Positions 19,873 through 41,759 of a DNA stretch of 64,000 nucleotides are shown here, one piece after another (the stretch's first letter is position 1; each line of letters starts with the position of its first letter). The position numbers and the translations under genes were made by a program. The notes below the pieces were generated by a model. That model saw only the letters and a program-made list of their open reading frames with translations, had not been told where the DNA came from and searched no databases. Source of the DNA: Patescibacteria group bacterium UBA3466 (GTDB lineage Bacteria > Patescibacteriota > Minisyncoccia > Phycocordibacterales > UBA918); assembly GCA_002378195.1 (NCBI GenBank), contig DFRJ01000001.1, forward strand, positions 161,722-225,721, written 5' to 3'.

Positions 19873-21552
19873 ATGGAACCCTGGTACTGGCTGAACGAAA
19901 ATAGTCGCGCGTTTCTGGCCCGAGGATATCTTGGCGAAGAACAAACCGCCGAAGAACGTATTCGTGTCATCGCTGACACAGCAGAAAAATATCTAAAACG
20001 AGACGGCTTCTCAGACAAGTTTTATGAGTATATGTCCAAAGGTTGGATCTCACTGTCTTCACCGGTGTGGTCAAATTTTGGCATTAGCAAGGGCCTGCCA
20101 ATTAGCTGTTTCGGTTCTTACGCTGCCGACAATATGGCCAGCATCCTACACACCAACGGGGAAGTGGGGATGATGAGCAAGTTCGGTGGTGGTTGTTCAG
20201 GCTACTTTGGTGCACTCCGAGCTCGTGGAGCGTCTATCTCAGATAACAACGGCTATTCTTCTGGGTCGGTTCACTTTATGCAGCTGTTCGAAACCTTGGT
20301 GGATGTGGTCTCGCAAGGTTCAGTGCGACGCGGGCATTTCTCACCGTATCTACCGGCCGAACATGATGATGTCATGGAATTCCTCGACATCGGGACTGAA
20401 GGGAACCCGATCCAAAAGCTCACGCACGGGGTGACTGTTGGCGATGAATGGATGGAGTCAATGATCGAAGGCGACGAAGCCAAGCGAAAGATTTGGGCAC
20501 GCATCATTCAGCGGCGGGGAGAAATGGGTTATCCGTACATCATGTTTAATGATACAGCTAACAAAAACACCGTTGACGCCTACAAAGATAAAGACCTCAC
20601 TATTTATGCCAGTAACATGTGTAGTGAGATCATGCTGCCAAGTAAAGAAGACTGGTCATTTGTTTGCTGCTTGTCTTCAGTCAACTTGCTACACTACGAT
20701 GACTGGAAGGATACCGATCTAATCGAGACAATGACCGCTTTTCTAGATGCAGTGATGGAAGATTTCATCGTGAAGTTGGAAGAAATGCGAGATCACGAAG
20801 ATTCAGAAAAACAAGCAGCATTTCGATTTATGGAGCGAGCGTACAACTTCGCTAAAGCCAATAGAGCTCTCGGCTTGGGTGTCCTTGGATACCACTCTCT
20901 ACTACAGGCAAAGAATTTGCCTTTTGAAAGCGACGAAGCAGCTGCTCTCAACACCGAAGTATTCAAATTAATGAAAGAAAAAGCTTATGCTGAGTCGGAA
21001 GTATTGGCTAAGGAGCTTGGTGAACCTGAAGTGCTAGAAGGTTATGGGCGTCGAAACACAACGCTACTGGCTATTGCTCCAACCACTTCATCAGCCTTTA
21101 TTTTGGGGCAAGTGTCTCAAGGGATTGAGCCGATTTGGTCAAACTGCTACATCAAAGATGTGGCTAAGATGAAGGTGACCATTAAGAACCCGACCCTCAA
21201 GAAGCTTTTGGAAGAGAAGGGAGAGGACACAAAAACTACGTGGGACAGCATCCGCGATAATGACGGGTCAGTACAGCACCTAGATTGTTTGTCAGACGAA
21301 GAAAAGGCTATCTTCCGGACTTTTGCTGAAATCGATCAAGCTACTCTCATTGAACAAGCTGGAGAACGACAGAAGTATATCGATCAGGGTCAGTCACTTA
21401 ATGTGATGGTGGCGCCTGATACTCCGGTAAAGGAAATCAATCAGCTATACATCAAAGCTTGGAAGGAAGGAGTGAAATCTCTCTATTACCAACACAGTAT
21501 GAACGCCGCACAGCAATTGGTAAGAAAGAAGCTGACAGAAGGAGGTAAGTAG
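19873..21552 (+). CDS. nrdA: Ribonucleotide reductase class I alpha subunit (R1), short form lacking ATP-cone and C-terminal redox cysteines
   Basis: Active-site blocks ISCFGSY, NMCSEIMLPSK (Cys/Glu), FVCCLSSVNL and the radical-path tyrosines SLYYQHS. 559 aa, ending ...LTEGGK with no Cys. Confidence 0.85.
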   Translation: MEPWYWLNENSRAFLARGYLGEEQTAEERIRVIADTAEKYLKRDGFSDKFYEYMSKGWISLSSPVWSNFGISKGLPISCFGSYAADNMASILHTNGEVGMMSKFGGGCSGYFGALRARGASISDNNGYSSGSVHFMQLFETLVDVVSQGSVRRGHFSPYLPAEHDDVMEFLDIGTEGNPIQKLTHGVTVGDEWMESMIEGDEAKRKIWARIIQRRGEMGYPYIMFNDTANKNTVDAYKDKDLTIYASNMCSEIMLPSKEDWSFVCCLSSVNLLHYDDWKDTDLIETMTAFLDAVMEDFIVKLEEMRDHEDSEKQAAFRFMERAYNFAKANRALGLGVLGYHSLLQAKNLPFESDEAAALNTEVFKLMKEKAYAESEVLAKELGEPEVLEGYGRRNTTLLAIAPTTSSAFILGQVSQGIEPIWSNCYIKDVAKMKVTIKNPTLKKLLEEKGEDTKTTWDSIRDNDGSVQHLDCLSDEEKAIFRTFAEIDQATLIEQAGERQKYIDQGQSLNVMVAPDTPVKEINQLYIKAWKEGVKSLYYQHSMNAAQQLVRKKLTEGGK

Positions 21553-26147: not shown

Positions 26148-26516
26148 ATGGAAAATAACAAACTATCAATTATTTACACTAGAAAATTTTGGCTGAGTCT
26201 AATCGTAATTCAAGCATTAACAAATTTAATATTATTGAACATCTTGTATAACACCTCAGATACAGTTTTTGAATACTTATATGCAACTTTGCTGATTTTG
26301 GGGGCTGCTACACCGGCACTAGTTATTTATCCAATATTAGGTGATGGGATAGTTATAGATCTTATAAATTCTCTGGTTTTCGTAGTATTTGCTTTCTACG
26401 TATTTCGAAATGTCGTGAGACCGCGAGGAAAGATTAAAATTCTAATACCGCTTTCATTCGTTACTGTTTCACTAATCAGTTTAATTTTTGGTGCTGTGGT
26501 GATAAGCTCATTTTAA
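26148..26516 (+). CDS. Small multi-TM membrane protein (MENNK-start family, copy B)
   Basis: 122 aa, begins MENNK; its 3' end overlaps convergently with the stop of the 26476-28584 gene. Confidence 0.5.
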   Translation: MENNKLSIIYTRKFWLSLIVIQALTNLILLNILYNTSDTVFEYLYATLLILGAATPALVIYPILGDGIVIDLINSLVFVVFAFYVFRNVVRPRGKIKILIPLSFVTVSLISLIFGAVVISSF

Positions 26517-28584
26517 TTTCTGCAATTAAGTCACGGCTGGTTTGCGCATCCTCTGGGGAGATTTGATCTCTACGTTCTAATCTTTCGATCATCCTATCTA
26601 TTCGTCGTAGTAAAAATTTTGCTGTCCGGTCGGAGATTCGGGTATTCTTTAGTGACATTTTTTCAGCCAACTTGATCCTTAGCAGCAAGCGCTTTTCGTT
26701 GTGGCGGCTTAAGTCGCTGTCTTTTATTGCAGCTTTTAGTGCAGCAAACAATTCTTCCGTGGTCGGAGGTTCTTCTGCGGTATAAAGTCCTAGTCCGTAG
26801 CGAGAGAAGGTGGTGTTGGTAAAGGTGACGGTGCTTTCTGCTACGTTTACATTACTGTCTAATTTTGGTTCCCAGGTTGCTGTCTCAGGATTAAAGTAGA
26901 AAACAATCAGTTCTTCCGCATTACCTCCTAGTTCTGTTATCAGTTCTGGTTCATAAGCAAAGGTTACATCGACTGAGAAAGTGTCATTTTCGAGCGATGA
27001 TTCCAGATCCCAGAAGATAGGTAGCATTTTGGTACCGTCTGGTATCAGACCTTCAGTGACGGGTTCTTGATAGGGAGTGATGTTGAAGGTGGTGCCAGCT
27101 GGTAGAGGAGAGGTAAATTGCATCTCAATGTCAGACTTGGGGAAGGAGATGTAATCAGTTTCTTCCGTTAGTTCTAATTGCGAAATGGTATCGATCCCGG
27201 CCCAGGCCACAGGATTTAAGAAACGAGTTGTGCCACCGACGTTGAGGAAGCCAGGTCCTCGAGGTCCATCACCACCCGGTGTGAGCGTTAAATCAGATCC
27301 CCACTTACCGCTAAAATTTAAAAAGATTTGATCGATGCTAGATAGTTTATTTAAACTATCTAGAGTTACACCAGAATTAGAAGTTATATCTGTGCCAACA
27401 CCAGTATTAATACTTTTTACATAAGGATAATTCGCGTGTGATCCTAATGACACATAGCTCACTAGCCGTTCAGCATCTTTAGTTACTTCTTCGCTATCCC
27501 AAGCCCTTCTCACAGAGTCGTAGGTTTTGGGATCAAAGTCTTCCGCATCCCCATTATTATGATGAGCTGAATAAGCCACATATTCAGGCTCCTCAGTTTC
27601 GGCGTCCAAGAAAATAAAGACTGATTCAAAATCACCTTCGTGGTTGTTAAAGCCTCCTTGTTCAGCCCAATTATTCATCGCGTAAAACTGCCAGTATTGC
27701 AGGACGATATAGTCTTTGTCGGCCGTGGAGTCAGTCATGCGGTGGGCGTAGACGGTCACATTTTCAGGGTCGGGGGTGCCGTACTTGGTGCGGGCCGCAT
27801 CGAGATCGATTGAAGCTGGGTTGTTCGGGTCGCTGTAGGCGAGGTAGTAATCTTCAGTATTATTTTGCTCTACTATCTGTGCAAAGGTGGCTGGAGTCAG
27901 ACTTTCTTCATTGAGGACAATTTCATCTACCAACTCTCCATCCCAGAGAGCGCTATCAGTAATAAACTCTTCCATGCTCATCGGGAAGTAGTCTTCATCA
28001 GGGTGCATTCGCAATATCGGTGCGTACTCTAAAAGTAGTGGGTCAATTTCTTCCTCGTCAGAGGGCGCTACCACCGTGAAGGTAGTCACGTAAGTGTAGG
28101 TAGGGGGAAATTCTTGAGCGTGAGCAGTCGGGATTAAAAATTCTAGCCATTGGTTGCGTTTTGCTTCCGAAAGGACCATTAGGAATTCATCCATGGTCAC
28201 AAGAGTGTAGGTGCCATAACCGTCGAGAGCTAGTCTAAAATTATTACTACTGTCACGGTAGTCATCTCCGTCGTGCTTATAAATAAAAGAAGAAGCACTG
28301 GTGTTTCTCGGATCACCTACCTCTTCCAAGATAGCCGAGTCTGGATCTTCTACTTCTATCACATCACCGTCATTAATGATGGTGCCGTTAATTTCCAATT
28401 TGATAGCTGGTTCTATATCAGATTTGCCAAAAGGATCCTCACAGTCTTCGATGGGATGTATTTCCTCAAAAAAGTCGATAATGTTGCCGCAGGGTAGATC
28501 GGCGCTGGCTTGATTGGTAAAAGTGAATAGTAATGAAAGGGCGAGCAGGAAAGATAACGCTCTAGCTTTGATTGTGATGGTCAT
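26476..28584 (-). CDS. Secreted protein with Vps62/DUF946-like domain and helical basic C-terminal tail
   Basis: Signal peptide MTITIKARALSFLLALSLLFTFTNQASA; central YVLQYWQFYAMNNW...GGFNNHEGDFESVFIFLD resembles the Vps62 (PF06101) HxGDWE core. The C-terminal 100 aa are K/R-rich helical. Confidence 0.5.
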   Translation of the reverse strand: MTITIKARALSFLLALSLLFTFTNQASADLPCGNIIDFFEEIHPIEDCEDPFGKSDIEPAIKLEINGTIINDGDVIEVEDPDSAILEEVGDPRNTSASSFIYKHDGDDYRDSSNNFRLALDGYGTYTLVTMDEFLMVLSEAKRNQWLEFLIPTAHAQEFPPTYTYVTTFTVVAPSDEEEIDPLLLEYAPILRMHPDEDYFPMSMEEFITDSALWDGELVDEIVLNEESLTPATFAQIVEQNNTEDYYLAYSDPNNPASIDLDAARTKYGTPDPENVTVYAHRMTDSTADKDYIVLQYWQFYAMNNWAEQGGFNNHEGDFESVFIFLDAETEEPEYVAYSAHHNNGDAEDFDPKTYDSVRRAWDSEEVTKDAERLVSYVSLGSHANYPYVKSINTGVGTDITSNSGVTLDSLNKLSSIDQIFLNFSGKWGSDLTLTPGGDGPRGPGFLNVGGTTRFLNPVAWAGIDTISQLELTEETDYISFPKSDIEMQFTSPLPAGTTFNITPYQEPVTEGLIPDGTKMLPIFWDLESSLENDTFSVDVTFAYEPELITELGGNAEELIVFYFNPETATWEPKLDSNVNVAESTVTFTNTTFSRYGLGLYTAEEPPTTEELFAALKAAIKDSDLSRHNEKRLLLRIKLAEKMSLKNTRISDRTAKFLLRRIDRMIERLERRDQISPEDAQTSRDLIAEIKMSLSPQHQKLN

Positions 28585-29201: not shown

Positions 29202-29903
29202 ATGATCAGACTTAATCTGTATCTGCTTATGTCTCAATTTGAAATCGAAATAAAATCTTTACTCGGCGAAAAAACTAATGCTGAAAATTTAAAAGCTCGC
29301 ATGGCCGAATTGGATCCCGGGCATAAGCAGGTGTCTGAAAATAAGCAGCTCAACCACTACTTCGAAGGGGGTGACGTTCATAAACTATATGACTTAGTTG
29401 AACATCTATACACCGGAGTAGAGCACGACAAATTTAAAATGCTGGCAGAGAAGGGGACTAATTGTTCAGTGCGAACACGGCAGCGTGATGATGAGGTTTT
29501 GCTCGTAGTTAAAGCTTCCATCGACGAGGGTACCAGCGAAAACACGGTGAAGCGAATGGAGTTTGAAGAACCAGTGAGCATTACTCTCGAAGAACTTGAT
29601 GATTTGGTGCAGCAGGCCGGATATAAATATCAGGCCAAGTGGTCGCGGGATCGGGAAGAGTATGAATACAAGGGCGTTAATGTCTGCATTGACCGCAACG
29701 CTGGTTACGGATATCTGGCCGAGTTTGAGAAGATCGTTGAGGATGAAGCCGAAACCGATGTGGTAAAAAATCAGTTATTGGAATTGATGCAAGAACTGCA
29801 GGTTGAAGAATTGCCGCAAGAAAGATTGGCGCGGATGTTTGAGCACTACAACGCTAATTGGCCAGACTACTATGGCACCGATAAGGTGTTCAGTATTGAG
29901 TAG
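29202..29903 (+). CDS. CYTH-domain protein (class IV adenylyl cyclase / triphosphatase-like)
   Basis: Starts with the EIEIK strand-1 motif of the CYTH fold and has acidic clusters consistent with a triphosphate tunnel. The true start is likely MSQFEIEIK at 29229. Confidence 0.5.
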   Translation: MIRLNLYLLMSQFEIEIKSLLGEKTNAENLKARMAELDPGHKQVSENKQLNHYFEGGDVHKLYDLVEHLYTGVEHDKFKMLAEKGTNCSVRTRQRDDEVLLVVKASIDEGTSENTVKRMEFEEPVSITLEELDDLVQQAGYKYQAKWSRDREEYEYKGVNVCIDRNAGYGYLAEFEKIVEDEAETDVVKNQLLELMQELQVEELPQERLARMFEHYNANWPDYYGTDKVFSIE

Positions 29904-30512: not shown

Positions 30513-31529
30513 ATGTCAGAGAAAAAACATCCAGAATATCAATATTTAGACTTATGTCAGGACATTCTTGATAATGGCGCTGATAAAGAATTGTTTTTCA
30601 ATGATGTTGTACTTGAGGAGTACAAGAAAAAAGGGGAAGAGCCGCCGTTTATTCGCTCAGTCTTCGGTCGGCAAATTCGCTTTGATTTATCGGAAGGATT
30701 TCCGCTTCTCACCACCAAAAAAACATTTTGGCGAGGAATTACCACCGAACTTTTATGGTTTCTTTCTGGTGATTCAAATTTGAAACCGCTCGTTGATCAG
30801 AATAATCATATTTGGGACGAGTGGGCGTGGAAGATGTATCACATGTGGGCGGTTGAAAATGCTCCAGATGAAGACATGACTCAGGAAGAGTTTATTACAA
30901 AAATTGCCGAGTCTGATGCGGATGATGAATTCGTCCAAAAATGGGGAGACCTGATCACTATCTATGGTCGAATGTGGCGCCGGTGGCCAGCCAAAGATGG
31001 CCGCGAGATCGATCAGTTGCAGTGGGTTATTGATGGACTAAAGAAGAAACCAGATCGTAAGAGTTATGTGGTAAATGCGTGGAATCCAGACTTTATTTAC
31101 GAAATGGCTTCTGAAGGTCAGCAGTCACAAGTGCCACCGTTTTGCCATACGATGTTTCAGTTTCAGGTGGCAAACGGTAAGTTGAATCTCGGTCTTTACC
31201 AACGATCGGCTGATGTTTTCTTGGGCGTACCATTCAATATTGCAAGTTACGCATTGTTGTTGAAGATGGTAGCGCAGGTGGTCGATATTCCAGCCGGGGA
31301 ATTTGTACATACTTTTGGTGACGCTCATATTTATTCTAATCACTTTGATCAAGTGAACGAGCAAATGTCTCGTGAGCCAATGTCTTTCCCGGAAGTGAAG
31401 CTGAACCCGGAGATTAAAAATATCGACGACTTTAAGCTTGAAGACATCGAGTTGGTCGACTATCAATCTCATCCGTCATTACGTGGAGAGATTGCTAATA
31501 TTGGTGGATTCGAGAAGAAAAATAAATAG
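30513..31529 (+). CDS. thyA: Thymidylate synthase (ThyA) with N-terminal extension and ~35-aa insertion
   Basis: FIRSVFGRQIRFDLSEGFPLLTTKK, ELLWFLSGDSN, catalytic PPFCHTMFQF and SADVFLGVPFNIASYALL blocks; 338 aa versus ~264 typical. Confidence 0.9.
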   Translation: MSEKKHPEYQYLDLCQDILDNGADKELFFNDVVLEEYKKKGEEPPFIRSVFGRQIRFDLSEGFPLLTTKKTFWRGITTELLWFLSGDSNLKPLVDQNNHIWDEWAWKMYHMWAVENAPDEDMTQEEFITKIAESDADDEFVQKWGDLITIYGRMWRRWPAKDGREIDQLQWVIDGLKKKPDRKSYVVNAWNPDFIYEMASEGQQSQVPPFCHTMFQFQVANGKLNLGLYQRSADVFLGVPFNIASYALLLKMVAQVVDIPAGEFVHTFGDAHIYSNHFDQVNEQMSREPMSFPEVKLNPEIKNIDDFKLEDIELVDYQSHPSLRGEIANIGGFEKKNK

Positions 31530-31759
31530 TCGGATGAAGGGATTGTTACAATTTTTTTTCCATGTCTACTTATTTCCTAGAGTAGATTAAAGTATTCGAC
31601 CATCGGCGCCGCTCAGTCATCTGCTGAAGTGACCAAAGAGGCTTTGTCATTGGTATCTTAAATCGTGCTATAATTTTGCCAATAATTTTCGTTTTATGAT
31701 CTAACTCATTCGCCACCACTTAGTAGAGCAAGTTAACAGTTACGGTAATTTATTTAAGT

Positions 31760-33031
31760 ATGAGCGAATATAAATACATCAAAGATCAAGACGAAGAAAT
31801 CTATCAAACACTAGTAGGAGAAGAGGAGCGCGAACGAGTCGGGATTGAATTAATTCCGAGTGAAAACTACGCCTCATTGGCGGTGCGGGAAGCTTGTGGT
31901 TCGGTATTTACCAACAAATACTCAGAAGGCTATCCAGGGAGGAGGTACTATGGTGGACAGGAGTTTACTGACCAAATGGAAACTATTGCCATCGAGCGGG
32001 CTAAAAAATTATTTAAAGCTGAGTACGCTAACGTTCAACCGCTCGGGGGAGCGGCCGCCAATGTTGCAATGTATTTTGCGCTCATGGAACCAGGCGACAC
32101 GGTGCTTGGTATGGATCTTTCACACGGCGGACATCTTACTCACGGTCATCCGACTACTGCTATCAATAAAGTCTTCAATTTTGTTCGCTACAAAATGAAA
32201 GATGTCGACACGGGGGAGATCGACTATGAACATTTGCGAGAGATGGCTATTGAGCACAAACCAAAGATAATCTTGGCTGGCTTTTCTGCTTACAGTCGGG
32301 AGCTTGATTACGCTAAGTTTAAAGAAATAGCCGATGAGGTGGGGGCGTATACCGTAGCGGACATTGCCCACATTACTGGACTAATTGCTGGTGGGGTAGC
32401 CAAAAATCCATTCGATTATGGTTTTGATGTAATGACTATGACTACTCATAAGTCACTTCGCGGTCCACGGGGAGGAATGATTGTGATCCGCGAAGACGAA
32501 GAAATCGCTAAGAAAATAAATAAGGCTGTCTTCCCGGGTATGCAAGGTGGTCCGCACATGCATATTATTGCTGCCAAGGCGGTGGCGTTTGGTGAAGCCC
32601 TGCATCCAAACTTCAAGCTTTATGCTGAGCAGATTGTTAAAAATGCCAAAGCTATGGAGGTTGTATTTAAAGATCACGAAGTGCGACTACTATGTGGTGG
32701 CACTGATAATCATCTACTACTGGCTGACGTGTACGGCTCACTAGGGGTGACCGGACAAGAGGCCGAGACCGTGCTCGATGAAGTGGGTATCACTCTCAAT
32801 AAAAACATGATCGCCGATGAGCCGCGCTCAGCTCTTGACCCATCTGGTATACGCTTCGGTACTCCGGCCATGACCACCCGCGGTATGAAAGAAGAAGAAG
32901 CTACCAGCTTAGCTGAGTTGATGATCCGAACCCTGAAAAATAAAGACAACGAAGCAGAGAAAGAAAAGATCAGACAGGCAGTGGTCGCTCTTTGTGAAAA
33001 ATTTCCGGTACCTGAAACTTTTGTCGACTAA
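31760..33031 (+). CDS. glyA: Serine hydroxymethyltransferase
   Basis: GIELIPSENYASLAVREACGSVFTNKYSEGYPGRRYYGG and the PLP-lysine region TTHKSLRGPRGG. Confidence 0.95.
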   Translation: MSEYKYIKDQDEEIYQTLVGEEERERVGIELIPSENYASLAVREACGSVFTNKYSEGYPGRRYYGGQEFTDQMETIAIERAKKLFKAEYANVQPLGGAAANVAMYFALMEPGDTVLGMDLSHGGHLTHGHPTTAINKVFNFVRYKMKDVDTGEIDYEHLREMAIEHKPKIILAGFSAYSRELDYAKFKEIADEVGAYTVADIAHITGLIAGGVAKNPFDYGFDVMTMTTHKSLRGPRGGMIVIREDEEIAKKINKAVFPGMQGGPHMHIIAAKAVAFGEALHPNFKLYAEQIVKNAKAMEVVFKDHEVRLLCGGTDNHLLLADVYGSLGVTGQEAETVLDEVGITLNKNMIADEPRSALDPSGIRFGTPAMTTRGMKEEEATSLAELMIRTLKNKDNEAEKEKIRQAVVALCEKFPVPETFVD

Positions 33032-33084
33032 GACAAGCTATAATCCGCAGGTAGTGCTAGACGGTAGTTTGGTATGATGAGTTT

Positions 33085-34173
33085 ATGCTGAATTTTATAA
33101 AACACTTCAGTCACTTGGTGCGAGTCCATTGGTTAACCTTTGGTTTTATTCTCGGTTTTATTACCGACTTAATTTTGCTGAACCGAATTGATGACTTGGT
33201 AGACAATCTGATCTTGTTGTTTTATGTGCTATTGGCCACTACCGCGATGCTGTTTCTTTATATGGGAGTGGCTGAGCGTGGTCCACAGTTTGCTTCTTTG
33301 TGGATGAAAAAGTATTCACCACTTTTAATGCAGTACGCTTTTGGTGGTTTGTTGTCTGGGATGCTTATTTTTTACGGGCGGAGCGGAGATTGGTTGGCCA
33401 GCGCCCCTTTTTTGCTTTTAATATTGGGAGTCATCCTGGGTAACGAGTTTGTTGGCAAGCGGTCTGATCGCTTGGTGTATAATCTCGCACTATATTTTAT
33501 TGGTCTGTTCTCATATATCGTACTCGTGATTCCAGTGATTTCTGGCATGATGGGGGATTGGATATTTATCGGCAGCGGCTTGATTGCGCTTATGATTGTT
33601 ACGTTTGTCGTGCGCTTACTTCACAAGATCGTGCCGAATTTCATGGAGGCGAATGTGAAGCGAGTCATTACTACTATCGGTTTTATTTATATTGGCTTCA
33701 ATACTTTGTACTTCACCAGTGTGATTCCTCCTATTCCTTTGTCGCTGACCGAATTAGAAATCGTGCAGCGATCGGTCAAGTTGGAAAGTGGTGGCTACCG
33801 GGTGGAGAGTGAAGTGCAGCCTTGGTTTCGCAAGCTGCCGTTTATGAAGCCGGTGCTTCATCCTAAATATAATTCGGTCAGTTGTTTTGCTCGAGTATTT
33901 GCGCCGACTCGTTTGTCGACTGATATTTATCACCGCTGGGAATATAAAGATGAAGAGGGACATTGGCATGAGCATTTTCGATTTGGTTACGAAATATCGG
34001 GTGCTAACAAAGGTGGGTATGGCGGCTACACCGTCAACGAGAATTTCTTCGATGGTGTTTGGCGTTGTAGTGTGGAGACTGAGAGGGGGCAGGTGTTGGG
34101 CCGATATTCGGTGGTAATAGATACCGCAGGTGAATTGAAGAGTACTGACAAAAACGAAGTACAGATTCGGTAA
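33085..34173 (+). CDS. Hypothetical polytopic membrane protein with C-terminal soluble beta-rich domain
   Basis: ~7 TM helices followed by a 140-aa C-terminal domain; no confident family. Confidence 0.4.
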   Translation: MLNFIKHFSHLVRVHWLTFGFILGFITDLILLNRIDDLVDNLILLFYVLLATTAMLFLYMGVAERGPQFASLWMKKYSPLLMQYAFGGLLSGMLIFYGRSGDWLASAPFLLLILGVILGNEFVGKRSDRLVYNLALYFIGLFSYIVLVIPVISGMMGDWIFIGSGLIALMIVTFVVRLLHKIVPNFMEANVKRVITTIGFIYIGFNTLYFTSVIPPIPLSLTELEIVQRSVKLESGGYRVESEVQPWFRKLPFMKPVLHPKYNSVSCFARVFAPTRLSTDIYHRWEYKDEEGHWHEHFRFGYEISGANKGGYGGYTVNENFFDGVWRCSVETERGQVLGRYSVVIDTAGELKSTDKNEVQIR

Positions 34174-34185
34174 GGAAATTAAAAT

Positions 34186-34225
34186 AAAGGCCGGAGAAGC
34201 TTTGCTTCTCCGGCCTTTATTTTTA
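34186..34225 (+). terminator. Rho-independent terminator
   Basis: aaaggccggagaagc-tttg-cttctccggccttt plus T-run. Confidence 0.8.
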
Positions 34226-34294
34226 CCTCACACATGGTACGATCAATTTGTGGTCTGATACACCACCTATCTAAGTCAAATTAGTGACTTAGTT

Positions 34295-37200
34295 ATGTCT
34301 GATATACATAAACAATCTAATATGAATAACAAGAATGATGGTCGCGTAAGCGACAAGGTAAAAGTGGTTGACGCTAAGCCTGCTTCTGAAGTGGCCAGGC
34401 GAGAAGAGGACATGCAAGCCTTTTGGGTTGAGCATGACATTTTTAATAAAACCTTAGAGACTCCAGCTGGCAATGAGCCAGACGGGGATTTTGTTTTTTA
34501 TGACGGTCCACCATTTGCCACCGGAGCACCTCACTACGGACACCTACTACAAAGCGCTCTCAAAGATGCCATTCCACGCTTTTGGACCATGAACGGCAAG
34601 CGGGTGCGTCGCCAGTGGGGGTGGGATTGTCACGGATTGCCGGTTGAGAATTTGATTGAAAAGAAATTGGGACTAGCCACCAAGAAGGATATTGAAGATT
34701 TTGGAGTAAAAAACTTTAACGAAGAAGCGCGTAATACCGTCATGGAGTACGCTGATGATTGGCGACAAATCGTGCCGCGCATGGGTCGGTTTGTTGATAT
34801 GGAAAATGACTACAAGACCATGGACAGTACCTACACCGAAAGTGTGTGGTGGGTGTTTAAGTCACTACATGAAAAAGGTTTGGTGTATGAAGGTTTTAAG
34901 ACTATGCATCTTTGTCCACGCTGTGGTACGACCTTGTCCAACTTCGAGGTGAATCAGGGTTATAAGGACATCAAGGATTTATCGGTGTTTGTTGAGTTGC
35001 CACTAATAGATGAAGCGGCTTCGCTGATAGTCTGGACGACTACTCCGTGGACTCTGCCGGGCAACATCGCCGCTGCAGTACATAAAGACATTGAGTATGC
35101 TCGAGTTAAGCTGACCGAAGATGATGGGGAAAAGACCGTGATCTTAGCCAAGGATCGGATTGAAGCTGTGCTTGGACAAAAGACTTTTGAAATCATCGGC
35201 ACTTACCAAGGGTCTGAACTGATCGGCAAGCAGTATCAGCCACCTTTTGATTATCATCAAAAGGAAGAGTTTGACGGAAAAGAAAATTGCTGGACGATTT
35301 ACCACGCCGATTATGTTGAGGTCGGTGAAGAAGGTAGTGGTATTGTGCACATTGCAGCTGCGTATGGAGAAGATGACATGAATTTGGCCAAAGAGAATGG
35401 GGTGCCAATCCGGCACCATGTCAATGAATCCGGCCATTTTATGGATTTTGTTACTGACTTTGCAGGTCTGCTGGTAAAGCCAAAAGATGACAAGACAGCC
35501 GATATCAATCATATGGACACCGATATCGAGATCATTCGCGCTTTGGCACAAAAAGGTGTGTTATTTGGTAAGGAAAAAATTACTCACAGCTATCCGCATT
35601 GTTGGCGTTGTGAGACACCGCTTCTGAATTACGCCACCACCTCTTGGTTTGTTGAAGTGACCAAGTTACGCAGTGAGTTATTGGCTGCAAACGCCGAGGT
35701 AGATTGGGTGCCAGAACATGTAGGGAAGAATCGCTTTGGAAAGTGGCTTGAGGGTGCGCGCGACTGGGCAGTGTCACGACAGCGTTATTGGGGAGCACCT
35801 TTACCGATCTGGAAAAATCCGGACACAAACGAGGTGCATGTCATTGGTGGGCTCGAAGAGCTAAAGAAATTAGTGAAAACTAGTGGCAATCAGTATGTAC
35901 TAATGCGCCACGGTGAGAGTGAAAGTAATATCAAAGGTATCATTAGCTGCAACAAAGCAAATGTTGACGGACTGACTGATAAAGGTAAAGAGCAGGCGAC
36001 AACGTCAGCTGCAAAGCTAGAAGATATCGATGTGATTATTCATTCAGGCTTCCAGCGCACCAAAGAGACGGCTGAAATTGTGGCCGCCCGTTTTCCTGGC
36101 GTCGAACTAATTGAAGATGATCGGATTCGTGAACTTGACCTGAGTGATGATTTTGAAGGTCAGACTTGGAAAGAGTACAACGCCAGCTTTGGTACTTGGG
36201 AAGAAAAGTTTAAAAAAGAATTGGTTGGTTCCGAAAACCGCCTAGACGTACAAAAGCGTATGGGAGAGTTCTTGTACGATCTGGATAAGCGCTATGCCGA
36301 CAAGAAGATTTTGATTGTCAGTCACGCCGGCCCATTGTTTGCTCTTGAGTGTGCAATTGACGGCTTGAATATCGAACAGTCAAAAAGCTACTTCGCTGAC
36401 GGAGCGGCCTACTTCAACAACGCTGAAGTGCGCACGCCAGATTTTTGTCCACTACCGCATAATGATAATTATGAACTTGATTTCCATCGTCCATACATAG
36501 ATGAGGTGGAATTATATGATGGGGGAGTGCGACTTTTGCGCGTACCGGATGTGTTTGATTGTTGGTTTGAATCTGGCTCAATGCCGTACGCTCAAAATCA
36601 CTATCCATTCTCGTGTGATCAAGAGGTGTTCCTGCAGCAACGATTCCCAGCGCAGTTTATTGGCGAAGGTTTAGATCAGACTCGTGGTTGGTTCTATTCA
36701 ATGATTGTGCTGGGAGTGGCTTTGTTCGGTAAGTCACCGTATGAAAACGTCGTAACAAATGGCTTGGTGCTGGCTGAAGATGGCCGGAAGATGAGTAAAT
36801 CATTACAGAATTATCCTGATCCAGTCGAGCTGATCAGTCAGGTGGGTGCCGATACCATTCGCTTTTATCTCCTGTCATCGTCATTGATAAGAGGGGAAGA
36901 TGTAAACTTTTCTGAGAAGGAGGTGCAAGAATTACAAAGAAAGAATATTGGTCGACTACACAATGTGCTGGTGATGTACCAGATGTTTGCGGATGGCACT
37001 GAGGCGGCCGACAATTCAGACCATGTGCTAGACCGATGGGTGGTAGCTCGCCTGAATCAATTGGTTGCTGAAGTGACAGCAGGTTATGAAAATTATGAGC
37101 TCGATAAAGCCACTCGACCAATTACTGATTTTATTGATGACCTGTCAGTATGGTACTTGCGTCGTAGTCGCGATCGTCTTAAAAGTGATGATGAGAAAGA

Positions 37201-37834
37201 CAAGGCTTTGGCACTTAGCACCTTGCGCTATGTGCTACAAAATCTTGCTTTAGTGATGGCTCCAGTGATGCCGTTTTACGCAGAATTTCTGTGGCAAGCG
37301 GTTAAAGAAGAAACTGAGGCTGAAAGCGTGCACTTAGGTCGGTGGCCAAAAACGACGAAGATTGATGAGTCGGTGGTGGTTGATATGTTGGCGACCAGAA
37401 CTATCGTAACCGAGGCGCTAGAGGCGCGGACTACGGCTGGGATTAAGGTGCGTCAACCAATTCAGGCTGTTTTCGGCCCGAAACTAGCAGCTGAGCTGTC
37501 AGCTATAGTGGTTGAAGAACTTAATGCCAAAGAGTACCAAGAGGCCGAGACTGTAAAGATTGATACTGAGCTGACCGCGGAGCTTTTGTCTGAAGGAGCG
37601 GTGCGAGAACTCATGCGAGCGGTGCAGGGAAATAGAAAGCAGGCCGGGCTGCAGCCAGACGACGAAATTACCCTCACTATCCAAGCAGATGAAGCTAGCA
37701 AACAGGCGGTGGAGACCCACGAGGAGCTTTTGGTAAGAACAGTAGGAGCAAGCGAGCTAGCATTTGCTGAGGTTACTGGGGAAGAGGTGCAAGCTGGAGA
37801 TTATAAGTTTGTCTTTACCATTAAGACTGCCTAG
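34295..37834 (+). CDS. ileS: Isoleucyl-tRNA synthetase carrying an inserted histidine-phosphatase (phosphoglycerate-mutase-like) domain
   Basis: HIGH (PFATGAPHYGHLL), editing-domain TTPWTLPGN and KMSKS motifs are all present. Between IWKNPDTNEVHVIGG and DFHRPYIDEV lies a ~200-aa block with the histidine-phosphatase motifs LMRHGESESN and ILIVSHAGP. Confidence 0.85.
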   Translation: MSDIHKQSNMNNKNDGRVSDKVKVVDAKPASEVARREEDMQAFWVEHDIFNKTLETPAGNEPDGDFVFYDGPPFATGAPHYGHLLQSALKDAIPRFWTMNGKRVRRQWGWDCHGLPVENLIEKKLGLATKKDIEDFGVKNFNEEARNTVMEYADDWRQIVPRMGRFVDMENDYKTMDSTYTESVWWVFKSLHEKGLVYEGFKTMHLCPRCGTTLSNFEVNQGYKDIKDLSVFVELPLIDEAASLIVWTTTPWTLPGNIAAAVHKDIEYARVKLTEDDGEKTVILAKDRIEAVLGQKTFEIIGTYQGSELIGKQYQPPFDYHQKEEFDGKENCWTIYHADYVEVGEEGSGIVHIAAAYGEDDMNLAKENGVPIRHHVNESGHFMDFVTDFAGLLVKPKDDKTADINHMDTDIEIIRALAQKGVLFGKEKITHSYPHCWRCETPLLNYATTSWFVEVTKLRSELLAANAEVDWVPEHVGKNRFGKWLEGARDWAVSRQRYWGAPLPIWKNPDTNEVHVIGGLEELKKLVKTSGNQYVLMRHGESESNIKGIISCNKANVDGLTDKGKEQATTSAAKLEDIDVIIHSGFQRTKETAEIVAARFPGVELIEDDRIRELDLSDDFEGQTWKEYNASFGTWEEKFKKELVGSENRLDVQKRMGEFLYDLDKRYADKKILIVSHAGPLFALECAIDGLNIEQSKSYFADGAAYFNNAEVRTPDFCPLPHNDNYELDFHRPYIDEVELYDGGVRLLRVPDVFDCWFESGSMPYAQNHYPFSCDQEVFLQQRFPAQFIGEGLDQTRGWFYSMIVLGVALFGKSPYENVVTNGLVLAEDGRKMSKSLQNYPDPVELISQVGADTIRFYLLSSSLIRGEDVNFSEKEVQELQRKNIGRLHNVLVMYQMFADGTEAADNSDHVLDRWVVARLNQLVAEVTAGYENYELDKATRPITDFIDDLSVWYLRRSRDRLKSDDEKDKALALSTLRYVLQNLALVMAPVMPFYAEFLWQAVKEETEAESVHLGRWPKTTKIDESVVVDMLATRTIVTEALEARTTAGIKVRQPIQAVFGPKLAAELSAIVVEELNAKEYQEAETVKIDTELTAELLSEGAVRELMRAVQGNRKQAGLQPDDEITLTIQADEASKQAVETHEELLVRTVGASELAFAEVTGEEVQAGDYKFVFTIKTA

Positions 37835-38410
37835 ATGGCCTATACTACGTACACCACAGAGGCGTTAGTGTGCGGAACTTTTGTTAGAAACACCGCCGAT
37901 GCTTCTTACTTATTGTTTACTAGAGAAGCGGGGATGTTGTACGCTGACGCGCGAAGCGTTCGTGAAGAACGCTCGCGTCAGCGCTACGCATTACAAGATT
38001 TTTCCTTACTCAGGGTGTCTTTGGTAAAAGGAAAAGGTGGTTGGAAAATCGGCAGTATTGAATCAATCAGAAATTATTATCAGCAAGCAAACAGCAAGTC
38101 AGCACGCGGTAGCGTAGTGTCGGTAGTACGCCTTTTGCGTCGCTTTCTGAAAGGGGAGGAGGTGATGACTGGTCTATTTGATTTGGCTAAAGATGGACTT
38201 GAAACATTACTCAAAGAAACAACAGAGCGCGCCTTCATTGAAGAGGTGGTTAAGCTCCGCATGCTGGCACTGCTTGGTTATGTAGATCGTAATAAAATAC
38301 CCGCCGAACTGACGGGTGAATGTAGCAATATTGCGGCTCACTATGATGACAAGTTAGAAAAAGCTATTAGCCAACTTTATGCCCACGCTGTGGATGTCAG
38401 CCATCTGTAG
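37835..38410 (+). CDS. recO: DNA repair protein RecO (short form)
   Basis: N-terminal OB-fold pattern TEALVCGTFVRNTADASYLLFTREAGMLYADARSVRE and the later LRMLALLGY helix resemble RecO; start overlaps the ileS stop. Confidence 0.55.
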   Translation: MAYTTYTTEALVCGTFVRNTADASYLLFTREAGMLYADARSVREERSRQRYALQDFSLLRVSLVKGKGGWKIGSIESIRNYYQQANSKSARGSVVSVVRLLRRFLKGEEVMTGLFDLAKDGLETLLKETTERAFIEEVVKLRMLALLGYVDRNKIPAELTGECSNIAAHYDDKLEKAISQLYAHAVDVSHL

Positions 38411-38437
38411 CTACAGTGGTATAATTATGGCCAAGAT

Positions 38438-40357
38438 ATGAAGCCGTTGAAAACCCAAAAGGAAATCGATGAGATGCGCCGCCGTCTATACGACCGCGGC
38501 CCGGCTTTGCGTGAGAGTGAGCGTCATAGGCTTACCGATATAAAAGTAGATGTATCAAAAGACTGGGAGAATAAACCTACTGCAGAACCAGCCCCTACCG
38601 AACCGGAAGAGCCTGAAGTCGTGGATGAGGCTGATGTCTTAGATCAAGACACATCAGAACCTGCCAGAAAATATCGCACAATTGTTTTAGTGGCGAGTAT
38701 TTTCTTATTTATTTGTGTGGCCACATTTTCCATTGTGACCTTGTTCCAAGGCAACAATCAAATTTCAAGTGAAAACATTAATTTGAATATTGAAGCACCG
38801 TCATTTATTGGTGGAGGAGAGATGTTGTCTATGCAAATTGAAGTCGATAACCAAAACGCAGTGGCGATTGAGTCAGCGACCTTGATAGTGAAATATCCTC
38901 CTGGTACCAGATCAGTCGAAGACAACCCGCGCAATTTATTTGAGGAGCGTATACCGATTAGTGACCTCTCTCCTGGTGAGACGGTGAATGTGCCAGTTAG
39001 CGTGACTATTTTTGGCGATGAGAATGATGAGAAAAAGATAGAAGCTACGTTGGAGTATCGAGTGGAAGGTTCTAATAGTATGTTTTACAAAGAATCTGCA
39101 CCACTGGCACTTAGGATTAGTTCGTCACCGTTGGTGCTACGGATTGATAATGTAGAGAAGGTGGCGTCTGGGCAATTGGTGCAGGTTAAGGTCACAGCGG
39201 TATCAAATGCTTCTGAGCCGCTTTCAGACATTTTGATTGCTGCATCTTATCCGAATGGTTTTGATTTTGAGACAGCAGACCCGGAGCCAGTTTTTGCACA
39301 AAATGTCTGGCGCATTGAAGAAATTTTGCCTGACGAAGAATTTTCTATTGAAATCGAAGGTGTTATTAGCGGATTGACTGAGGAAGAGCTAAGTCTTAAT
39401 TTCGTGGCCGGTCCGCCAGATACTGACAATCAGTTCATCGTTGGGGCCAGCTTGGCCGAAGGCGCATCCGACTTTTTGATTGAGCGACCTTTTATTAATT
39501 TAGATATTGCGATTAATGATGATAAAAGTCGATCAGTAGTCTTAAGTCAGGGCGAAGAGGCAAAAGTGGTGGTGGATATAACCAATACCTTAGATGAGAC
39601 AGTTTATGATTTGGTGGTGGAAGTAGAGCCAGGAGGGAATGCATTAAATGAAGATTCAATTATTAGCGGCCAGGGATTTTATGATTCCAACCGCGGAGTG
39701 GTGCGTTGGGAGGTTTCTAATAATGAGGACTTTGAGCGCATCTTCCCAGGTGATACCCGTCAAATTAATTTTGATATAAAACCAAACAATAACCCAAGTA
39801 CCGCCTCGTTCGATATTGTGATCAATGTCTACGCTAGGCGAGTGGCCGAAGAAAGTGCCCAAGAAACTTTGATCGGGACAACTCGAGCAGAAGCCAAGTA
39901 TTCAGCTACCGTTGGTCTTGGAAATCAGGCTAGTTTGATTAGTGGGCCAGTGCCGCCAAGGGTGGGAGAAATGACTAGCTACAATATAACTTTGGTGGCT
40001 GAGGCGGGCGCCAATGATCTGACCGACACTATTGTTGAGTCGAGCTTGCCGGTCTATGTTGAATGGGCCAATTCTTTTGAAGCTGATGGAGCAGTGACTT
40101 TCAATTCAGTATCGAAAAAACTAGAGTGGTTGGCCGGTAATATCGATGCCGGGGAAAGAAAGACTATGAATGTTCAACTTGACATTGTGCCGAGCCGCTC
40201 TCAAGAGGGTGATCGACCGGTCTTGATAAATTCACAAACAGTGCGAGCCAACGACCGCTTCACTGGGGCGCTGTTGCAAGATAGGGCAGAAGCTGTTACA
40301 ACTGAACTCTCAAGAGAAATGGGCTATGACGAAGGAAACGGAACAGTAGCAGACTAA
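38438..40357 (+). CDS. Membrane-anchored large surface protein with tandem beta-sandwich (DUF11/CARDB-like) repeats
   Basis: Basic N-terminus, single TM helix (IVLVASIFLFICVATFSIV), then repetitive V/T/E-rich segments typical of conserved-repeat-domain proteins. Confidence 0.45.
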   Translation: MKPLKTQKEIDEMRRRLYDRGPALRESERHRLTDIKVDVSKDWENKPTAEPAPTEPEEPEVVDEADVLDQDTSEPARKYRTIVLVASIFLFICVATFSIVTLFQGNNQISSENINLNIEAPSFIGGGEMLSMQIEVDNQNAVAIESATLIVKYPPGTRSVEDNPRNLFEERIPISDLSPGETVNVPVSVTIFGDENDEKKIEATLEYRVEGSNSMFYKESAPLALRISSSPLVLRIDNVEKVASGQLVQVKVTAVSNASEPLSDILIAASYPNGFDFETADPEPVFAQNVWRIEEILPDEEFSIEIEGVISGLTEEELSLNFVAGPPDTDNQFIVGASLAEGASDFLIERPFINLDIAINDDKSRSVVLSQGEEAKVVVDITNTLDETVYDLVVEVEPGGNALNEDSIISGQGFYDSNRGVVRWEVSNNEDFERIFPGDTRQINFDIKPNNNPSTASFDIVINVYARRVAEESAQETLIGTTRAEAKYSATVGLGNQASLISGPVPPRVGEMTSYNITLVAEAGANDLTDTIVESSLPVYVEWANSFEADGAVTFNSVSKKLEWLAGNIDAGERKTMNVQLDIVPSRSQEGDRPVLINSQTVRANDRFTGALLQDRAEAVTTELSREMGYDEGNGTVAD

Positions 40358-40373
40358 TATTTTAATCAGGATA

Positions 40374-41759
40374 ATGAACGAAAAAGAAAACAACAAAATG
40401 GACAAAATTGTCAGTCTCTGTAAGCGACGGGGTTTTGTATTTCAAGGTAGTGAAATTTACGGTGGACTACGAGGAACTTGGGACTTGGGCCCATTGGGGG
40501 TAGCTCTCAATAACAATCTCAAGCGCGAGTGGTGGAAGATGTTTGTCGATGGGCGAGAGGATATGTATGGTCTTGATGCGTCTATTTTGATGAATGGAAA
40601 AGTTTGGGATGCTTCTGGTCACACTGGCGCCGGCTTTTGTGATCCTTTGGTAGAAGATACTGAAACCGGAGAACGTTATCGAGCAGACCACTTACTTAAA
40701 GACGCTGGACATGAAGCCGACGGCTTAAGTCTCGAAGAGATAGATGCAATTATTGTTGATAATAAAATTGTAAGTCCCAATGGTAATCCACTTTCTCCTG
40801 CCAGACAGTTTAATTTAATGTTTGAGAGTCGTATTGGAGCCACTGCCGGAGACGAAGGACGGGTCTACCTACGGCCAGAAACAGCCCAAGGTATTTTTGT
40901 TAATTTCAAGAATGTTGTCGATACGATGTCACCAAAAATGCCTTTTGGTATTGCTCAGATCGGTAAAGCTTTTCGCAATGAAATTGCTCCTCGGGAATTT
41001 TTGTTTCGGGTGCGTGAGTTTGAACAGATGGAGATTGAGTATTTTATTAAGGAGGCAGCCTGGAAAGATGAGTTTGAAAAACTGAGAGGAGACATCAAAA
41101 AGTGGCACACTCATTTAGGTTTGTCTGAAGATAATATTCGTGAATACGAGGTGCCTGATAACGATCTTGCACATTACTCAAAACGGACAATTGATTTTGA
41201 ATACAATTACCCAGGTAAAGGCTTTGATGAGCTTTGTGGTTTTGCTTACAGAACTGACCATGATCTTAAAAATCATATGGAAGCCAGTGGAGTATCAATG
41301 GAATACATTGAACCCGATGGCAGTCGTTATGTGCCACACGTACTCGAACCATCATTTGGAATTGGCCGTGCTATCACTGCTGTACTTTGTGAAGCCTACA
41401 CTGAAGACGAAATGAATGGAGATGTTCGTACTTATCTTAAGCTGCCTAAGCACTTGGCGCCAAACCGGGTAGCGGTATCACCACTCTTGAAGAACAAGCC
41501 AGAATTAGTCGAAAAAGCGCGAGAAGTATTTACCATGCTTAAGACTGAGTTTGGAAACGTGGCCTGGGACGATAATGGAAACGTCGGTAAGCGCTACCGT
41601 CGGCAGGATGAAATTGGTACTCCGCACTGCATCGTAATCGATTTTGATACGCTAGGACAAGAAGCGCCGGAGCACACAGATACGGTGACAGTCCGTGATC
41701 GTGATACTGGTGAACAAGAGCGTGTGGCCATTTCTGACTTGATTCAAAAACTAAAATAA
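40374..41759 (+). CDS. glyQS: Glycyl-tRNA synthetase (alpha2 dimeric type)
   Basis: RRGFVFQGSEIYGGLRGTWDLGPLG N-terminus, class II motifs 2 and 3, and a C-terminal anticodon-binding domain. Confidence 0.9.
   Translation: MNEKENNKMDKIVSLCKRRGFVFQGSEIYGGLRGTWDLGPLGVALNNNLKREWWKMFVDGREDMYGLDASILMNGKVWDASGHTGAGFCDPLVEDTETGERYRADHLLKDAGHEADGLSLEEIDAIIVDNKIVSPNGNPLSPARQFNLMFESRIGATAGDEGRVYLRPETAQGIFVNFKNVVDTMSPKMPFGIAQIGKAFRNEIAPREFLFRVREFEQMEIEYFIKEAAWKDEFEKLRGDIKKWHTHLGLSEDNIREYEVPDNDLAHYSKRTIDFEYNYPGKGFDELCGFAYRTDHDLKNHMEASGVSMEYIEPDGSRYVPHVLEPSFGIGRAITAVLCEAYTEDEMNGDVRTYLKLPKHLAPNRVAVSPLLKNKPELVEKAREVFTMLKTEFGNVAWDDNGNVGKRYRRQDEIGTPHCIVIDFDTLGQEAPEHTDTVTVRDRDTGEQERVAISDLIQKLK

Follow-up and report, generated by a model that had tools for sequence, protein, structure and literature searches.

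What is a complete histidine phosphatase doing within an isoleucyl-tRNA synthetase (IleRS)? The question is raised by ileS::HP, a gene at positions 34295..37834 (+) of a 64,000 nt stretch of DNA (the window) from contig DFRJ01000001.1 of Patescibacteria group bacterium UBA3466, a marine, ultra-small member of the candidate phyla radiation. The ORF list together with Pfam and NCBIfam matches shows that ileS::HP is a type-2 IleRS with a nested histidine phosphatase (HP). The simplest reading of its history is that a phosphatase gene that lay next to ileS, in many cases just a few bases away, was taken into the synthetase as a nested domain, and the architecture and this origin, taken jointly, are put forward with high confidence. 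As to function, the reading favored here, with a probability of roughly 0.55, is that the chain carries two partnered enzymes and that the phosphatase acts beside the synthetase on a small phosphorylated compound.

The longest open reading frame (ORF) of ileS::HP is 34295..37834 (+) and in the ORF listing has 1179 amino acids (aa) with no interruption, as the original prediction had stated. The public gene call of an identical protein, P0001, starts at M10 (nt 34322) and gives 1170 aa. Pfam displays the tRNA-synt_1 domain in two pieces (E=3.9e-138) with His_Phos_1 in between, and C-terminal to the catalytic domain there is Anticodon_1 followed by DUF5915. The NCBIfam ileS equivalog TIGR00392 scores 871.6 bits with the whole protein (cut-off 621.4). 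The HIGH, editing-domain and KMSKS motifs claimed earlier can all be read from the translation. The HIGH signature of the class I catalytic site has the form HYGH (34532..34543, aa 80–83, +), which is invariant in 118 homologues, and KMSKS is at 36788..36802 (aa 832–836, +); in homologues of ileS::HP the two signatures are invariant or at least 90% kept. The threonine-rich motif of the connective peptide 1 (CP1) editing domain, WTTTPWTLP, is at 35033..35059 (aa 247–255, +), and the second editing motif GSGIVHIAAAYGEDD, of type GxGxVHxAPxxGxDD, at 35333–35377 (aa 347–361, +), both from translation and alignment. The Pfam anticodon-binding domain (aa 913–1058) and the type-2 DUF5915 (aa 1082–1177) encompass 37031..37825 (+), and the latter stands in place of the bacterial zinc-binding C-terminus. 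The best structural matches of ileS::HP are IleRS2, yeast and Thermus enzymes. Judged from these signatures, the host is a complete type-2 IleRS with predicted intact aminoacylation and editing sites.

Two special IleRS types were considered and rejected. MupA/MupB, the mupirocin-resistant forms (NF000257/8), score 644 and 674 with a cut-off of 1900. The ileS_w_GNAT family (NF040702) scores 314 with a cut-off of 1999, and the window protein has no GNAT. An antisense ORF of 135 aa is present inside ileS (35144–35551, −) and has BLAST matches in 25 related loci. These matches almost certainly arise because the sense strand is conserved, and the ORF is probably not a gene.

Where the additional sequence begins and ends is seen by alignment with solved IleRS structures. 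With the Thermus thermophilus enzyme (1ILE), the query to aa 526–527 pairs up to residue 478 and query aa 728–729 resumes at residue 488, i.e. the block takes the place of residues 479–487. The break is at 492/498 in yeast IleRS and at 491/498 in human IleRS. Because the alignment stops and resumes at these positions, the extra block is assigned to aa 527–728 (35873..36478, +), replacing a loop of 5–9 residues in the CP3 subdomain of canonical IleRS. This is essentially the same as the earlier placement at 35860–36480, and the proposed alignment of the flanks to canonical IleRS puts the break in CP3 with the T. thermophilus and yeast enzymes. The insert had also been described as embedded in the catalytic core. 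It does lie between the two halves of the catalytic fold, but the site is a CP3 loop and not the Rossmann core itself.

The host site is, from these alignments, the distal loop or tip of CP3, to which the phosphatase is joined by short conserved linkers. The CP2-CP3 linker and N-terminal half of CP3 (WAVSRQRYWGAPLPIW ... LEELKKL) are aligned at 35765..35872 (aa 491–526, +), and the C-terminal junction with the second half of CP3 (PLPHNDNYELDFHRPYIDE) at 36449..36505 (aa 719–737, +). The PLPHNDNYELDFHRPYIDE junction is kept across nested members and pairs with DPHRPYVD of T. thermophilus IleRS. Further downstream, the VFDCWFESGSMPY motif (36551..36589, +), located by sequence comparison, marks the start of the second Rossmann half. 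Directly after it is a position termed site B, which in other species has taken up a second phosphatase or a GNAT domain. In yeast IleRS, CP3 comprises residues 459–526, with the replaced loop in its middle. At the foot of CP3, the CP2-CP3 linker helps to line the pocket that takes up the CCA end of the tRNA and that is also the reveromycin A site (PMC7955072); the subdomain names are found as well in PMC11685878.

In distant nested homologues a CP3 zinc knuckle, CxxC ... CxC(GG), brackets the insert. Its cysteines are present in distant patescibacterial IleRS, nested and unfused alike. All four are replaced in the window protein (35765–35872 and 36479–36550), and the same loss is found in the seven closest relatives compared over CP3. 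The structural role of the zinc site may have passed to the nested phosphatase.

The nested domain itself is at aa 528–712 (35876..36430, +) and is a branch 1 histidine phosphatase of PhoE/PspA-like type. The hidden Markov model search that had been proposed as a check gives a clear answer: His_Phos_1 (PF00300) matches aa 535–698 with E=4.2e-30 and 105.3 bits (gathering cut-off 21.7). The two hallmark motifs named in the original prediction are present, i.e. LMRHGESESN at aa 536–545 (nt 35900–35929) and ILIVSHAGP at aa 672–680 (nt 36308–36334). Residues R538-H539 of the RHG motif (35906..35911, +), where H539 is the predicted phospho-accepting nucleophile, are invariant in 118 close and 26 distant homologues. 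The second phosphate-binding arginine is R588 (36056..36058, +) in the motif SGFQRTKETA, and the second catalytic histidine is H677 (36323..36325, +) in VSHAGP, both from translation and alignments. E613 (36131..36133, +), in IRELD, is the predicted proton donor; it is invariant in the close set and at least 90% conserved in the distant set. In the 118-sequence alignment R538, H539, N545, R588, E613 and H677 are invariant, and likewise T561, G564, S584, E647, R655 and G690. In the 26 members at 33–48% identity the Arg-His pair, the second Arg, the Glu of GE(S/N) and the second His are without exception.

Comparison with four relatives gives nonsynonymous differences per site (pN) of 0.22–0.29 for the phosphatase and 0.18–0.23 for the synthetase core; as the corresponding synonymous values (pS) are saturated (at least 0.77), only pN is comparable between the regions, and dN/dS is not. 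With pN low and pS saturated, the pattern shows purifying selection on the phosphatase. The conserved active site suggests that the insert is probably an active phosphatase. A non-catalytic role, as a structural, regulatory or binding module, i.e. a pseudo-phosphatase such as a phospho-metabolite sensor that tunes IleRS, is very improbable, given that the catalytic residues are invariant in hundreds of sequences and in all extra copies found in the variants described below.

The structural models agree with an autonomous domain. An AlphaFold2 model of the whole chain, computed with 118 homologues, has a mean predicted local distance difference test (pLDDT) of 81.6 and a predicted template modeling score of 0.70. 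Confidence is highest in the phosphatase, with pLDDT 94–98 over aa 530–700, and the domain displays the alpha/beta fold of the histidine phosphatase superfamily. Modeling had been suggested to see if the domain folds by itself, and the phosphatase is, in the model, independently folded within the synthetase chain. A model of the isolated domain (pLDDT 87.5) matches small branch 1 histidine phosphatases, with the following match values: PspA (4IJ5) 21.2, PhoE (1H2E) 20.6, GpgP (6S2Q) 20.4, and a riboflavin-pathway phosphatase (9MMH) 19.7.

The insert falls below the curated cut-offs of the enzyme families that it resembles. The label PGAM-like, used in the original prediction, holds at the level of the superfamily but the insert is not a dPGM, as all dPGM scores (NF038349, TIGR01258) are too low, i.e. 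80 bits vs 225 for dPGM_arch and 22 vs 81.7 for pgm_1. The metal-independent phosphoserine phosphatase PspA (NF045917) is excluded with 65–69 vs 350, the alpha-ribazole phosphatase CobC (TIGR03162) with 68–72 vs 162.9, and SixA also is below its curated cut-off. By these scores the insert is a member of the superfamily that stands outside every characterized enzyme family.

Could the arrangement be an artefact, i.e. a chimeric assembly, a frameshifted gene pair, an intein or a mobile intervening sequence? Nothing in favor of this was found, although one relative (P0254) does carry an in-frame transposase domain. The frame and the GC content (0.44–0.50) are both continuous over the two junctions, and a marine contig of 8.8 kb from JGI is 100% identical to window positions 31322–38176, which is far beyond chance. 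Smooth GC and this contig speak against a chimeric misassembly, which had been named as a finding that could overturn the fusion. The same junction is found in all of the best 120 homologues and in the best 80 of at least 459 loci, as well as in the identical independent contig, and the junction motifs are conserved. An intein is ruled out: Pfam at E<=0.01 gives no match of ileS::HP to an intein or Hint family, and the junction sequences (...LKKL|VKTSGN... and ...NYEL|DFHRPY...) are without splicing residues. The earlier statement that the insert is neither an intein nor a frame artefact is thus upheld by the continuous frame, the lack of a Hint match and the recurrence in independent assemblies, and the probability left to an artefact is close to nil.

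The nested form is widespread. PF00300 is found in all 120 of the best database homologues, which are 61–100% identical and about 1165–1220 aa in length; those that are named come from Candidatus Kaiserbacteria or Nomurabacteria and are annotated as "class I tRNA ligase family protein". A search for the same insertion in other genomes had been recommended, and a scan of one genome per GTDB species shows at least 459 candidate loci that encode a relative of the insert. The best 80 of these all cover the insert and continue into the IleRS junction motif. Of the 80, nearly all are from Patescibacteria (Kaiserbacteria, Nomurabacteria, Paceibacteria, Wolfebacteria and Parcubacteria, with some bins under generic labels); one bin, L064, is labeled Spirochaetia. 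In a large part of the Paceibacteria this is the normal form of ileS, and the design is common to hundreds of related species.

The likely source of the insert is seen in its free-standing relatives. A search with the insert against 1.84 billion cluster representatives gave IleRS proteins or fragments, together with proteins of about 180–200 aa that have an initial Met and stop immediately ahead of the IleRS junction motif. A profile made from nine of these standalone phosphatases finds 1673 relatives at E<=1e-10, of which the best 120 are all 167–232 aa in length with His_Phos_1 as the only domain; the few named ones belong to Patescibacteria (Staskawiczbacteria, Portnoybacteria), with the annotation "histidine phosphatase family protein" or "PhoE". 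The standalone phosphatases (e.g. P0229, P0315 and P0344, about 190 aa) are the closest relatives of the insert found outside of a synthetase, with about 38–44% identity, and share its catalytic motifs and genomic neighborhood. Unlike the insert they are separate polypeptides, which stop just before the PxPHN..LDxHRPYID segment of IleRS.

In eight of nine contexts the standalone gene adjoins an unfused type-2 ileS (818–986 aa), sometimes with one small gene between. In seven of these eight it precedes ileS on the same strand, and in the remaining one (L088) it is adjacent but convergent. The usual order is argS–HP–ileS–(0–3 small genes)–recO, and several loci continue after recO with a DUF11/CLIPPER surface protein and a class II aminoacyl-tRNA synthetase (aaRS). 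Spacing between phosphatase and ileS is tight, e.g. a gap of 1 nt in L081, an overlap of 4 nt in L087 and a gap of 7 nt in L090, where argS and the phosphatase gene also overlap by 14 nt. The unfused IleRS proteins are 35–50% identical to the query core and have a loop of 5–8 residues, e.g. SSVKVT, at the insert site. Context comparison shows that the region downstream of ileS::HP (37835..41759, +) shares synteny with the unfused loci, i.e. a recO-like gene (37835–38410, +), a DUF11 surface protein (38438–40357, +) and a class II aaRS (40374–41759, +). No second phosphatase gene is found anywhere in the 64-kb window, and an extra standalone phosphatase is present within 6 kb in one of 80 nested loci (L035).

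When the phosphatase domains and the IleRS cores are each placed in a neighbor-joining tree, nested and unfused members are interleaved; the trees are star-like and carry no support values. A divergent IleRS subtype marked by VGNPWLDAGIV has both states, with P0267 nested and L086, L089 and L090 unfused. Because both states are found in the one subtype, more than one transition between nested and unfused forms is likely from these sequences.

A CYTH (triphosphate-tunnel) gene is present at window positions 29202–29900, five genes upstream of ileS in the order CYTH–dcd–thyA–glyA–DUF2914–ileS. In two species a CYTH gene is located exactly between the standalone phosphatase and ileS (L083:8570–9160 and L084:3939–4529). 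CYTH may be a third recurrent partner.

The phosphatase is not restricted to one site or to one copy. Unusually long matches were mapped onto the query and their sequences read directly. P0211 has two tandem phosphatases at the CP3 site. In P0238 one is at CP3 and another separates the KMSKS/stem-contact region from the anticodon domain, and P0157 has one at CP3 and one after WFESG. In P0227 and P0257 CP3 is empty, and one phosphatase is directly after WFESGSMPYAS and another before the anticodon domain. Across the variants, phosphatase domains are thus found at no fewer than three sites besides CP3, and the catalytic residues are kept in every copy of the multi-copy variants. P0183, a metagenomic protein of 1161 aa that ends at the contig end, is a valyl-tRNA synthetase (ValRS), with 411 bits for valS vs 199 for ileS and the motif DWCISRQIWWGHRIPVWY. 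It has four phosphatase domains, one after WF.MV and at least two after RQxWWG. RHG is present in all four, the second catalytic His in the three complete copies, and the fourth copy is cut by the contig end.

Other domains also are found in these synthetases. Two IleRS proteins, L054:4438–8505 (1355 aa) and L068:4405–8535 (1376 aa), have a C-terminal extension. In L054 this extension contains an HD (HDIG-like) phosphohydrolase at aa 1157–1269, in addition to the nested phosphatase, and L068 maps alike. P0254, an incomplete IleRS of 1066 aa, displays a REP-associated tyrosine transposase (NF047646, 81.3 bits) in-frame at aa 326–472 in the editing-domain region, in addition to a phosphatase at CP3 and, after WFESGSMPYAQLHFPF, an inserted GNAT acetyltransferase. 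A protein similar to leucyl-tRNA synthetase (LeuRS), L091:6550–9585 of 1011 aa, has a serine-hydrolase/alpha-beta-hydrolase domain nested at aa 383–566, just past the editing domain; a standalone phosphatase of the family described here is two genes upstream of it.

From the close spacing to ileS, the nesting at several sites, the multiple copies, the presence in ValRS and the co-occurrence with HD, we infer a partnership of the phosphatase with class Ia synthetases, in which it would be no random passenger. Fusion in some lineages and an ileS neighbor in sister lineages is in itself a "Rosetta stone" signal of such a partnership. Whether the phosphatase is functionally coupled to the synthetase is, from sequence data, nevertheless close to an even question. 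The capped PhoE/PspA-like fold and the lack of a conserved basic surface favor a small substrate. A nucleotide or tRNA-end substrate, or a moonlighting role, as suggested in the original prediction, would each be possible.

With partnership as the preferred reading, a two-gene module of phosphatase and ileS would have become fixed as one gene when the domain moved into ileS in the Paceibacteria. The catalytic steps proposed for the insert are taken over from the established chemistry of the histidine phosphatase superfamily. H539 would attack a phosphomonoester whose phosphate is held by R538, R588 and H677, E613 would protonate the leaving group, and the phospho-histidine intermediate would be hydrolyzed afterwards. 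The chemistry of IleRS would be unchanged, and the phosphatase would work alongside it at fixed stoichiometry. The substrate may be a small nucleotide-type phosphate ester that is made at, or interferes with, class Ia synthetases, although this and any other particular substrate is doubtful.

A different possibility is that the insert is a hitch-hiking metabolic phosphomonoesterase, of phosphoserine, sugar-phosphate or cofactor-phosphate type, with no mechanistic link to aminoacylation. The gene would have come to lie beside ileS by chance and a local rearrangement would have brought it into a permissive loop; it would then be retained since the cell needs the two activities and removal of the domain would disrupt an essential gene. 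Several results weigh against partnership, and a number of them favor the hitch-hiker directly. The nearest structural relatives of the insert are ordinary metabolite phosphatases. It scores below every NCBIfam equivalog threshold, and its sequence does not point to a substrate. No conserved basic surface is found on it, and its isoelectric point, 4.5–10, tracks proteome composition. It evolves somewhat faster, with a mean identity of 0.51 vs 0.72 for the synthetase core. The ileS neighborhood is a generic housekeeping cluster, and argS–HP–ileS–recO could be no more than a conserved housekeeping gene order. Domains unrelated to the phosphatase (tyrosine transposase, GNAT, serine hydrolase) are nested in class Ia synthetases here, which suggests a general tolerance to insertion, and much of the pattern could be due to such tolerance instead of to selection for a coupled function. 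However, the nesting of one domain family at four or more sites is difficult to account for unless proximity is under selection, and the same applies to tandem or quadruple copies with kept catalytic residues and to the occurrence in ValRS. The gaps of 1–7 nt, or overlaps, in several unfused species suggest stoichiometric co-expression, and the nested and unfused states in one divergent IleRS subtype point to repeated transitions. A hitch-hiking phosphatase is regarded as a tentative alternative and rather unlikely.

The position of the insert raises another alternative, i.e. healing of the tRNA 3′-end. The phosphatase would take a 3′- or 2′-phosphate off A76, or cleave the end phosphate from a pyrophosphorylated CCA, so that the tRNA becomes chargeable again on the same enzyme; the blocked ends would come from RNases or from toxins of the toxSAS type. 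Some IleRS have both the phosphatase and HD, and the pair could act in sequence, with a cyclic phosphate opened first and the resulting monoester removed next. Activities of this kind are present in the HD domain of the E. coli CCA-adding enzyme. Several copies per chain also fit a macromolecular substrate, and CP3 rises from the CP2-CP3 linker that lines the tRNA CCA pocket (PMC7955072). Toxins of the toxSAS type do exist that pyrophosphorylate the CCA end, and their action can be tRNA-specific (PMC11559606; bioRxiv 10.1101/2021.04.30.441581). Against this, the capped active site of the fold group is typical of small substrates, there is no conserved positive surface, and nothing accounts for a need mainly in IleRS. 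The PADLOC defence-system models show no meaningful match for the phosphatase or the HD domain. Healing is on these grounds improbable.

In a broader form of the same idea, patescibacterial IleRS, ValRS and LeuRS would be platforms with integral enzymes for repair or policing of the tRNA acceptor end, which is a long shot. It is just as speculative that on such a platform the phosphatase, sometimes with HD, strips a 3′-(pyro)phosphate or a 2′/3′-phosphate from A76. If it were true, the synthetase would both heal and charge its tRNA, and a new synthetase-embedded repair or antitoxin activity would be at hand.

Whichever substrate is acted upon, the arrangement is of interest in itself. Aminoacyl-tRNA synthetases are among the most conserved enzymes, and domains added to them have repeatedly marked new functions, e.g. 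editing, signaling and resistance. In the present case another active site, complete in itself, is placed in the connective-peptide region by the tRNA CCA pocket, within an essential enzyme of hundreds of uncultivated species, and the set of nested and unfused loci shows a route from a neighboring gene to a nested domain. The class Ia synthetases of the candidate phyla radiation appear to be unusually tolerant hosts, with phosphatase, HD, GNAT, serine hydrolase and tyrosine transposase domains, which bears on protein engineering and on the annotation of proteins now labeled "class I tRNA ligase family protein". The original prediction knew of no description of such a fusion. A search of the literature on IleRS and aaRS with histidine phosphatase agrees, as no description of a phosphatase nested in, or partnered with, IleRS was found, and the AARS Online paper mentions no such phosphatase. 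The sequences have been public for years with automatic domain hits. The architecture, its breadth and its neighbor-gene origin are firmly supported, and all of them would surprise a specialist in synthetases.

Several other features of the window were recorded. A gene pair at 18458–19771 and 19873–21552 contains a ribonucleotide reductase small subunit with an N-terminal ATP-cone (PF03477 + PF00268); the adjacent large subunit has no ATP-cone match at E<=1e-5. Genes for a DNA photolyase and a photolyase-related protein (DPRP) are located on either side of an MGH1-like glycoside hydrolase gene (9322–10737, 10771–12015 and 12028–13464). This set fits an organism of the sunlit surface ocean, and the identical protein P0001 is present in the Tara and JGI collections. 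Two ORFs, 26476–28584 (−) of 702 aa and 57347–59413 (+) of 688 aa, show no Pfam match at E<=1e-5.

Among known systems, the closest to the host are the type-2 IleRS of P. megaterium (IleRS2, 8C8V), Thermus (1ILE) and yeast (8WND), which are the best Foldseek matches with E 1e-65 to 1e-49 and 28–33% identity. Like these enzymes, ileS::HP has HIGH, KMSKS, CP1 editing, CP2/CP3, the anticodon domain and DUF5915. The difference is that the canonical enzymes have a loop of 5–9 residues where ileS::HP has a phosphatase of 200 aa. A curated precedent for an IleRS with an extra catalytic domain is NF040702 (ileS_w_GNAT), to which the GNAT of P0254 is comparable; that family carries GNAT, whereas the window protein carries a phosphatase. 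With its nested phosphatase, ileS::HP belongs among the synthetases with accessory catalytic domains.

On the phosphatase side, PspA of H. thermophilus (4IJ5), PhoE of B. stearothermophilus (1H2E), CobC and GpgP are free-standing metabolic enzymes, whereas the insert is nested in a synthetase. Histidine phosphatases have been joined to other enzymes before. The RNase H/acid phosphatase of the M. tuberculosis Rv2228c type (NF005567) is an end-to-end fusion with another partner, and the insert scores 62–66 vs 326 with this family. The MutT1-type Nudix and histidine-phosphatase proteins (3FJY, 9CXX) also differ in the partner and are joined end to end, not nested as is the phosphatase of ileS::HP.

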